From the NCBI RefSeq assembly GCF_013122565.1, contig NZ_CP053258.1: 64,000 nt of DNA. One strand, given 5' to 3'. The DNA is from Escherichia coli (lineage in GTDB: Bacteria; Pseudomonadota; Gammaproteobacteria; Enterobacterales; Enterobacteriaceae). Below, in pieces: positions 25,206 through 59,715 of this stretch. Below the pieces are notes generated by a model. It saw only the letters and a program-made list of their open reading frames with translations. It was not told the DNA's origin and searched no databases. Positions within the stretch are counted from its first letter, which is position 1; each line of letters opens with the position of its first letter. The position numbers and the translations under genes were made by a program.

Positions 25206-25240
25206 GTAGGCCGGACAGGGCGTTCACGCCGCATCCGGCA
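25206..25240. repeat. REP (repetitive extragenic palindromic) element
   Basis: GTAGGCCGGACAGGGCGTTCACGCCGCATCCGGCA matches the REP consensus (GCCGGATGCGGCGTGAACGCC...GGCCTAC) in inverse orientation; intergenic between yhdP and tldD. Confidence 0.75.
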
Positions 25241-25271: not shown

Positions 25272-26732
<1,461 letters not shown>

Positions 26733-26782
26733 TAATTTCAGTATTTTCAGAAGGATAATTAATCCTTCCTCATGCACGAACG

Positions 26783-26824
26783 GTCCCCTCGCCCCTTTGG
26801 GGAGAGGGTTAGGGTGAGGGGAAC
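26783..26824. repeat. GC-rich palindromic intergenic element (CCCCTCGCCCC / GGGGAGAGGG / GGGTGAGGGG), probable hairpin or terminator
   Basis: Seen directly; a related copy lies at 44640..44676. Confidence 0.5.
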
Positions 26825-26865
26825 CCGTTGGCACAGGTTTGAACAACGTAACAGTACAATATGAA

Positions 26866-27795
26866 TTACTTCTCTTTCCCGCGCCCATGCATCTCCTGAA
26901 ACAATTTACCGACCTCAACAAAATAATCCGTCAGCGAGTTGATCACGACCTGTACCTTCAGCGGCAGTTTATCTTTTTCGGTATACAACGCATAAACCGG
27001 GCGTGGATCTGACTGGTAACGCGGCAGCAGGATCTCCAGCTCCCCACGATTGATCTCGTTGATCACCCACATCAGCGGCACGTAGGCGATCCCGGCACCC
27101 GCCGTCAGCCAGCGCACCAGCGTCATCGGATCATTAGTCACAAATCTTCCTTGTGGGATCAGGCGAGTCGAGATCCCTTCCGGTGCGATCAGTTCAAATT
27201 CATTGTCGGGCCGCACGCTGTATTCAAGCCATGAATGACTACTCAAATCGGCGGGTTTTTCCGGTATGCCGTATTGTGTGAGATAGCTTTTCGCGGCGCA
27301 CACCACCATCGGCATCGCGCCAAGACGGCGGGAAAACAGGCTGGAATCCTGCAACGCGCCGACGCGGATCACCACATCCAGACCATCGGCAATCAGGTCG
27401 GGGGCAGGAATTCCGGTAACCAGATTGACGCTCAAACCTGGGTATTCTTTCAGCATTTTTGCTGTCAGCCCGGCGAGAACATTTTGTGCCATAGTTGAAG
27501 AACAGCCAATGCGCAGCGTCCCGATGGGGGTGTTATTGAAGGCATACAGTTGCTCATGAACATCCTGCACTTCATGAAGCATACGACGGCAGCCCTGGTA
27601 GTAAATTCTACCGGCTTCGGTCAGGCCAATGCTGCGTGTGCTACGGTTTAACAGCTTTACCTGCAACTCATCTTCCAGTTTTGACACCGTCTGACTGATG
27701 GACGAAACGCTCATCTGTAGCTGTCTGGCGGCGGCGGTAAAAGAGCCAAATTCAACTACTTTGGCAAACACCGACATGCGTTTTAGTCGTTCCAT
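26866..27795 (-). CDS. aaeR: LysR-family regulator AaeR
   Basis: 309-aa LysR-type regulator (N-terminal HTH) divergent from aaeXAB. Confidence 0.9.
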   Translation of the reverse strand: MERLKRMSVFAKVVEFGSFTAAARQLQMSVSSISQTVSKLEDELQVKLLNRSTRSIGLTEAGRIYYQGCRRMLHEVQDVHEQLYAFNNTPIGTLRIGCSSTMAQNVLAGLTAKMLKEYPGLSVNLVTGIPAPDLIADGLDVVIRVGALQDSSLFSRRLGAMPMVVCAAKSYLTQYGIPEKPADLSSHSWLEYSVRPDNEFELIAPEGISTRLIPQGRFVTNDPMTLVRWLTAGAGIAYVPLMWVINEINRGELEILLPRYQSDPRPVYALYTEKDKLPLKVQVVINSLTDYFVEVGKLFQEMHGRGKEK

Positions 27796-59603: not shown

Positions 59604-59715
59604 CCCCGGCTAGACCGGGGTGCGCGAATACTGCGCCAACACCAGGGAAATCTTGGCTGCGCCGTAAATTATTATGATGAGTTACAAGGGCACAGCACTG
59701 TTTTTCAGGCCGCAC
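59595..59715 (-). ncRNA. arcZ: Small regulatory RNA ArcZ (SraH/RyhA), convergent with and overlapping the arcB 3' end
   Basis: Minus-strand sequence GTGCGGCCTGAAAAACAGTGCTGTGCCCTTGTAACTCATCATAATAATTTACGGCGCAGCCAAGATTTCCCTGGTGTTGGCGCAGTATTCGCGCACCCCGGTCTAGCCGGGGTCATTTTTT matches ArcZ as I recall it, including the terminator hairpin CCCCGG-TCTAG-CCGGGG and U-tract. Confidence 0.8.

Follow-up and report, generated by a model that had tools for sequence, protein, structure and literature searches.

In the window analysed here, a 64-kb stretch of Escherichia coli DNA, the GC-rich element located between tldD and aaeR (element 1) is an ordinary copy of the catalogued repeat BoxC and not a member of a new family. 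The element located between nanA and nanT (element 2) is, in our reading, an uncatalogued BoxC relic reduced to a 16-bp hairpin. The identity and the ancestry of both elements are established by the comparisons reported below. Concerning their role, we favour the reading in which both are RNA hairpins that guard transcript ends and are not terminators, and we give this reading a probability of about 0.55. The coordinates of the features are collected in Table 1.

Table 1. Coordinates of the two elements and neighbouring genes in the window, and of RNA 3' ends mapped at BoxC-type hairpins in the K-12 chromosome.
Feature	Coordinates	Strand	Basis or remark
Window
Element 1 arm 1, C-rich block CCCCTCGCCCC	26785-26795	+	window sequence; match to the TMECO regular expression
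Element 1 arm 2, purine block GGGGAGAGGG	26799-26808	+	Watson-Crick partner of arm 1 with one G.A mismatch (published 'mm' type)
Element 1 arm 3, purine block GGGTGAGGGG	26812-26821	+	putative third strand of the triplex formed in vitro
Complete BoxC unit (type A) with conserved flanks, tldD-aaeR convergent spacer	26770-26843	+	nhmmer
tldD CDS; element 1 in its 3' UTR	25287-26732	+	ORF and annotation under BLAST matches
aaeR CDS, convergent with tldD; complement of element 1 in its 3' UTR	26866-27795	-	ORF and annotation
Element 2, two-arm hairpin derived from BoxC, nanA-nanT spacer	44639-44677	+	fold, nhmmer, conservation
nanA CDS	43743-44636	+	stop TGA at 44634-44636; element 2 stem begins 3 nt later
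nanT CDS, next nan operon gene, 68 nt past element 2	44745-46235	+	ATG start by K-12 alignment
K-12
3' end at BoxC-type hairpin, lldD	3781065	+	Term-seq, PMC7815308
3' end at BoxC-type hairpin, ppiC read-through	3959467	-	Term-seq, PMC7815308
3' end at BoxC-type hairpin, glnH, in the glnH-glnP intra-operon spacer; very high counts	847200	-	Term-seq, PMC7815308
3' end at BoxC-type hairpin, cstA	632098	+	Term-seq, PMC7815308
3' end at BoxC-type hairpin, yjbD	4231270	-	Term-seq, PMC7815308

A BoxC copy between tldD and aaeR

The initial annotation of this DNA had reported two copies of a palindromic element with shared arms. Two related elements are indeed present: the 12-mer GGGTGAGGGGAA occurs exactly twice in the 64-kb window, once in each element, with 0.01 occurrences expected; two occurrences were likewise counted for the compound pattern CCCCTCNC-N0-30-GGGTGAGGGG, for which 0.00 are expected. 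The gene context had been correctly recognised as well (tldD ends at 26732 and nanA at 44636, according to ORFs and BLAST annotation). The position "immediately 3'" of a plus-strand gene is right for element 2 (3 nt) but not for element 1, which lies in the middle of its spacer, 52 nt past the tldD stop and, on the opposite strand, 44 nt past the aaeR stop. Nor is element 1 the simple palindrome that had been described; it is a three-block motif with the order CCCCTCGCCCC-TTT-GGGGAGAGGG-TTA-GGGTGAGGGG at 26785-26821. In the RNA fold arm 1 pairs with arm 3, which is thus an alternative partner of arm 1, and this hairpin has a free energy of -23.7 kcal/mol.

BoxC was described in the 1990s, re-described in 2000 as PIT (potential intrastrand triplex) and then as TMECO (PMC4666352). 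The unit measures about 60 bp, with a 36-nt core composed of one C-rich and two G-rich blocks, and is dispersed in enterobacteria. The published TMECO pattern is CCCTCNCCC-N3-6-GGGNGAGGG-N3-GGGNGAGGG, and 23 MG1655 copies are listed in Table 1 of Holder et al. 2015 (PMC4666352). Used as a regular expression, the pattern recovered 23/23 of the published K-12 copies (all 18 K-12 loci were retrieved) and matched the window at exactly one place, 26786-26820. When the K-12 locus was read, the orthologue of element 1 proved to be TMECO no. 14, at 3,390,494-3,390,529 (PMC4666352 Table 1), and comparison with the catalogued E. coli repeats therefore speaks against the distinct family that had been proposed. 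Arm 2 differs by one base between the window (GGGGAGAGGG) and K-12 (GGGGTGAGGG), so that the copy of the window is identical to the commonest 'type A mm' sequence (PMC4666352 Table 1).

We also searched the window by nhmmer with a model built from the K-12 type A copies alone. This model detected element 1 with E=8.7e-21 over 74 nt (26770-26843), and the flanks GCAC..GGTC and GGAAC..GCAC, beyond the 36-nt core, are common to element 1 and the K-12 copies. Element 1 shares with BoxC/PIT/TMECO the three-block pattern, the TTA second loop of type A and one mismatched triplet, together with the conserved flanks, the intergenic location and the many dispersed copies. With a 71-nt query from element 1, blastn gave hits in 5425/5426 complete E. 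coli genomes, at 1 to 28 places in each (median 15); 75,829 of these places are chromosomal and 30 are on plasmids. The dispersed nature of the element had thus been well anticipated, but the family is the one already catalogued as BoxC/PIT/TMECO, and the repeat after tldD can be filed accordingly. Among the 18 catalogued K-12 loci, 16 follow a stop codon, at a median distance of about 25 nt; the flanking genes are convergent at seven of the 18 loci, co-directional at nine and divergent at two.

The RefSeq annotation of K-12 carries no repeat features in the tldD-aaeR or the nanA-nanT spacer, and a literature search for later BoxC work under the names TMECO and PIT returned Holder et al. 2015 alone. 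An Rfam covariance-model scan of the whole window gave no match at either element at the gathering score. The sole Rfam match in the window is the ArcZ small RNA gene at 59608-59715 on the minus strand, which is full-length and scores 120.8 bits.

The two elements had been described as different from the REP element nearby, and this is correct. The window contains a single classical REP hairpin, at 25206-25240 between yhdP and tldD, with the arms GCCGGACAGGGCG and GCCGGATGCGGCG; the REP consensus arms GCCGGATG...CATCCGGC are present at 25210-25239 and occur in neither element. BoxC resembles REP/BIME in that both are dispersed GC-rich extragenic palindromes found after stop codons and within operons, and in both cases RNA 3' ends map just past the hairpin. 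There is however no sequence similarity between them, REP being made of two arms and BoxC of three blocks. To our knowledge, no dedicated transposase exists for BoxC.

The tldD-aaeR spacer is unusually variable, most E. coli genomes being 90-97% identical over 200-320 nt. In an alignment of representatives, the full motif is found in the window, in O157:H7 and in K-12; 6 nt of arm 2 are deleted in E. coli B and in strain 85.0412, and 12 nt are deleted within the motif in AR_0104. Among 40 evenly spaced rows of the ranking, we counted the full form 15 times, the 6-nt deletion 20 times and the 12-nt deletion four times. The deleted alleles fold at -34 to -35 kcal/mol, against -32.3 kcal/mol for the full form; they are thus as stable or more stable, and they have lost the triplex potential. 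This decay resembles the state that is fixed in element 2. The fact that the hairpin is kept while the triplex potential is lost, in the polymorphic tldD-aaeR spacer and in the fixed nanA-nanT spacer, argues that any selection acts on the hairpin. We did not find such hairpin retention with triplex loss stated in the literature searched.

Some other features of this spacer were observed. Between the tldD stop and BoxC, at 26751-26769, there is a perfect AT-rich palindrome, GAAGGATAATTAATCCTTC, which has one mismatch in K-12. No genome among 5,426 complete E. coli genomes is identical to window positions 26640-26960, the best being strains of the O157:H7 lineage (99.1%). The G-rich strand at 26799-26821, GGGGAGAGGGTTAGGGTGAGGGG, has four G-runs that fit a G-quadruplex motif, and it contains GGGTTAGGG, as in the vertebrate telomere repeat. 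A quadruplex was ruled out by NMR for the DNA oligonucleotide (Holder et al. 2015, PMC4666352).

The hairpin between nanA and nanT

Element 2 is composed of TTGTTTCCCCTCGCTCG (44639-44654), the loop CCCCTAC and CGGGTGAGGGGAAATAA (44662-44677), the two arms forming the 16-bp stem; its RNA fold has a free energy of -26.1 kcal/mol (z=-6.2). The three-block TMECO regular expression did not match element 2, because the middle purine block is absent, and in the absence of this block the triplex cannot form. With the BoxC profiles, element 2 is the only other match in the 64-kb window besides element 1. Its nhmmer E values are 3.9e-4 with the type B model (44635-44692), 7.2e-4 with the model of all copies and 0.023 with the type A model, and 3.2e-5 against the set of nanA-nanT spacers. 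By eye, element 2 corresponds to a type B copy minus its middle arm, CCCTCG[CTCG]CCCCT-A-CCGGGTGAGGGG with the flank AAATAAACGC; for comparison, type B copies read CCCTCGCCCCT-TTGGGGAGAGGG-CCGGGGTGAGGGG, with flanks such as TAAATATTCGC.

Element 2 thus resembles BoxC/PIT/TMECO by its arm sequences, by parts of the type B flanks and by its site, which holds full copies in sister genera. It differs by the lack of the middle purine block, by a 4-nt CTCG duplication, by being single-copy and by its absence from the published list. Indeed, a 161-nt query found element 2 at one place per genome, with at least 99% identity in 5244/5408 genomes, and the nanA-nanT spacer of the window is 100% identical to that of many strains. 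What had initially been taken for a second dispersed copy is a single-copy relic devoid of the middle arm. A literature search on a nanA-nanT hairpin returned nothing relevant.

We then surveyed the spacer at nanA loci from 80 species. The two-arm hairpin follows nanA in all Escherichia lineages (E. coli, E. albertii, E. whittamii and the cryptic clades). A full three-arm BoxC is found directly after the nanA stop in Pseudocitrobacter faecalis, in P. vendiensis and in Enterobacter sp. kpr-6, as inverted pairs or arrays, and the Kluyvera spacer contains a partial copy. The sequence TTCATACCAAAGCG is common to element 2 and to all three spacers with a full BoxC, and AAACGCATC, downstream of element 2, is also found in P. 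faecalis. In Citrobacter, Salmonella, Enterobacter and Lelliottia, REP elements fill the spacer that is occupied in Escherichia by element 2, which suggests that this position tolerates or favours a stable hairpin. The presence of REP in some genera and of BoxC or its relic in Escherichia, Pseudocitrobacter, Kluyvera and Enterobacter sp. kpr-6 indicates that extragenic palindromes have repeatedly landed, or been retained, in this spacer. In P. vendiensis, one inverted type B copy after nanA is followed by at least three type A copies, arranged head-to-tail with a period of about 75 nt, that is, a local expansion of the repeat.

Two routes to element 2 appear plausible. Holder et al. 2015 described a 'palindrome effect', whereby an inverted pair loses part of each copy and ends up as a stable stem-loop (PMC4666352); by analogy, a deletion spanning an inverted BoxC pair may have generated element 2. 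Element 2 resembles such a product of paired TMECO sites since sister genera carry inverted pairs at this place, but nanA-nanT is not among the loci described, and the product is fixed across Escherichia and not polymorphic. Alternatively, a single type B copy may have lost its middle arm. The left arm of E. coli, CCCCTCGCTCGCCCC, fits this second route, and those of E. albertii and E69 (CCCTCACCCG and CCCCTCACTCG) fit either one.

Across seven Escherichia lineages, 96.4% of the stem cells are paired and the right arm is invariant. The left arm has four variable positions, where the pairs alternate only as C-G/U.G or G.U/A-U, so that pairing is kept. In a covariation test, the stem did not stand out statistically from shuffled controls (330/500 shuffles were as good), the seven sequences being near-identical. 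The substitution pattern is consistent with selection on an RNA hairpin. In addition, the close spacing between the nanA stop and the stem is kept in all Escherichia sequences.

RNA 3' ends at BoxC hairpins

The initial annotation had suggested that the elements act as terminators or as mRNA stabilisers. A terminator scan on both strands of the two elements found no terminator and no T-tract. Since no U-tract follows either hairpin (the downstream sequences are AACCCGTTGG and ATAAACGCAT), neither of them is an intrinsic terminator. In K-12, a Rho-termination region at 3390148 on the minus strand is located about 350 nt past BoxC in the direction of tldD (score 6.0, p=5.5e-18; PMC7815308), which implies read-through of element 1. 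Element 2, for its part, lies inside the nan operon and therefore cannot be an efficient terminator. According to the summary given in PMC4666352, PIT elements showed neither promoter nor terminator activity in reporter assays, and Holder et al. 2015, like the work of Hoyne and Maher cited there, found no effect on gene expression, promoters or terminators. The proposed terminator role is thus contradicted by the lacking T-tract, by these assays as summarised and by the downstream Rho region.

We therefore turn to the published Term-seq tables, which cover three conditions (Adams et al. 2021, PMC7815308). They contain no 3' end at the BoxC of the tldD-aaeR spacer or between nanA and nanT; the tldD, aaeR and nan genes are weakly expressed or repressed in these conditions, so that the missing ends are an absence of data and not a negative result. 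At least five other K-12 BoxC-type hairpins do have 3' ends, situated 2-4 nt after the predicted stem, and 0/5 of them have a U-tract. The 61-mers of these tables, which we checked against the genome, span -50 to +10 of the 3' end. By coordinate look-up, 3' ends were found at 2/13 catalogued TMECO loci, and besides those two, ten K-12 BoxC loci looked up had none; TMECO loci with 6-digit coordinates, except adk-hemH, were covered by motif search alone, among the matches listed. The lldD end is assigned to a Rho-termination region, its intrinsic-terminator score of 1.3 does not reach the cut-off of 3.0, and the main ilvC 3' end is located beyond BoxC no. 20 (PMC7815308). The suggestion of an mRNA stabiliser thus finds indirect support across the family, but no 3' end is recorded at either of the two sites of the window.

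Three degenerate BoxC-like copies, in glnH-glnP (847.2 kb), cstA-ybdD (632.1 kb) and yjbD-rluF (4231.3 kb), are missing from the list of 23 TMECO, and each of them bears a mapped RNA 3' end.

Dar and Sorek reported in 2018 that stem-loops without U-tracts shield Rho-terminated transcripts from PNPase and RNase II, and the signature of a stem-loop barrier after Rho termination is the one we recognise at the lldD BoxC end (PMC6061677). The likeness to this class consists of a stable stem, no U-tract and Rho downstream, seen at the lldD BoxC and implied for tldD. It is however a class defined by function, for which that study tallied REP without naming BoxC, and neither window site bears a mapped end.

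Both elements are transcribed, element 1 in the 3' UTRs of tldD and aaeR and element 2 in the nanA-nanT intercistronic RNA. The GC-rich hairpin would let RNA polymerase pass and would block 3'-to-5' exonucleases, so that transcripts ended further downstream, by Rho or by processing, would be trimmed back to a stable, defined 3' end 2-4 nt after the stem. REP elements work as such exonuclease-barrier hairpins. For BoxC, published 3'-end maps show this barrier role at other members of the family and, by analogy, it is most likely also the role of the hairpins at the two sites of the window.

Alternative explanations and significance

Both elements could instead be neutral leftovers of a selfish or passively spreading repeat, persisting after stop codons as harmless sequences, with the 3' ends of the family being incidental. 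A post-stop location, which we relate to an RNA role, is also expected of neutral insertions that are tolerated only outside promoters. The two dedicated studies, as summarised in PMC4666352, found no function, the number of BoxC places ranges between 1 and 28 in different genomes, roughly 60% of the sampled E. coli genomes carry an element 1 eroded by internal deletion, and the covariation of element 2 is not significant with seven sequences. We nevertheless hold this explanation to be unlikely. It accounts poorly for an element 2 that is at least 99% identical in 5244/5408 genomes and keeps 96% pairing across Escherichia, all left-arm changes being compatible with pairing. It also does not predict that the decay products of element 1 keep or raise hairpin stability, that other genera fill the nanA-nanT spacer with a different hairpin family, REP, or that strong Term-seq ends occur at glnH and lldD.

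An activity at the DNA level was also considered. When single-stranded, the G-rich strand would form an intrastrand purine-motif triplex, which would stall replication or promote rearrangement and make the locus a hotspot of variation. Oligonucleotides of the 'type A mm' sequence, which is that of element 1, adopt a triplex in vitro that melts at about 74 C (CD and NMR), and variability at TMECO loci exceeds that of controls (PMC4666352). The contrast between the tldD-aaeR spacer, 90-97% identical with its 6- and 12-nt deletions, and the nanA-nanT spacer, at least 99% identical, goes in the same direction. However, no triplex was apparent when DMS footprinting was done in vivo, and as a duplex the sequence is ordinary B-DNA (PMC4666352); element 2 and the deleted alleles of element 1 persist though unable to form a triplex, and slippage between GGG runs explains the deletions equally well. 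Such an activity is improbable as the main role, and we retain it as a partial, non-exclusive alternative for element 1.

By analogy with REP, element 2 might act on translation, its stable hairpin impeding the terminating ribosome and thereby lowering NanA or triggering mRNA cleavage. Liang, Rudd and Deutscher (Mol Cell, 2015) reportedly described such an effect for REP located within 15 nt of a stop codon. The stem of element 2 starts at 44639 and the nanA stop ends at 44636, an extended fold pairs even the region of the stop codon, and the close spacing is kept in all Escherichia sequences. This explanation is inapplicable to element 1, which is separated from the tldD and aaeR stops by 52 and 44 nt, respectively, and we judge it quite improbable. 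Finally, the idea of Rho-independent (intrinsic) terminators for tldD and nanA, prompted by two GC-rich hairpins after stop codons, can practically be discarded, given the lack of a T-tract on either strand and the negative scan, nanT and the remaining operon directly downstream of element 2, the Rho region at K-12 3390148(-) about 350 nt past BoxC, a main ilvC 3' end beyond BoxC no. 20 and the negative PIT reporter assays as summarised in PMC4666352.

A broader proposal can be made tentatively, at less than even odds. BoxC would be a second REP-like class of hairpins that define and stabilise mRNA 3' ends in Enterobacteriaceae, and not a DNA-triplex curiosity. Within this proposal, selection would act on the hairpin, since it is the part that persists in decayed copies. 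The REP located between malE and malF sets an expression ratio; the nanA-nanT relic would likewise set the ratio of nanA to downstream nan expression, and the interchange of BoxC and REP in this spacer would be convergent. BoxC has so far been regarded as an element without known function, and 3' ends directly after BoxC hairpins give it a testable RNA-level role. We did not find such 3' ends, at several loci including glnH-glnP, stated in the literature searched. If this proposal is true, BoxC and its relics deserve the same treatment as REP in E. coli annotation pipelines and in 3'-UTR studies.

The nanA-nanT spacer also contains a second, small hairpin, GTGGGC-ATC-GCCCAC, at 44715-44729, 3 nt ahead of the nanT Shine-Dalgarno. 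Conservation of this hairpin extends from Escherichia to Buttiauxella, and spacers of the Citrobacter/Salmonella type, with their REP elements, lack it. In four of the six pairs, compensatory changes affect both sides, as in GTGGGC/GCCCAC, ATGGGG/CCCCAT and GTGGGT/ACCCAT.
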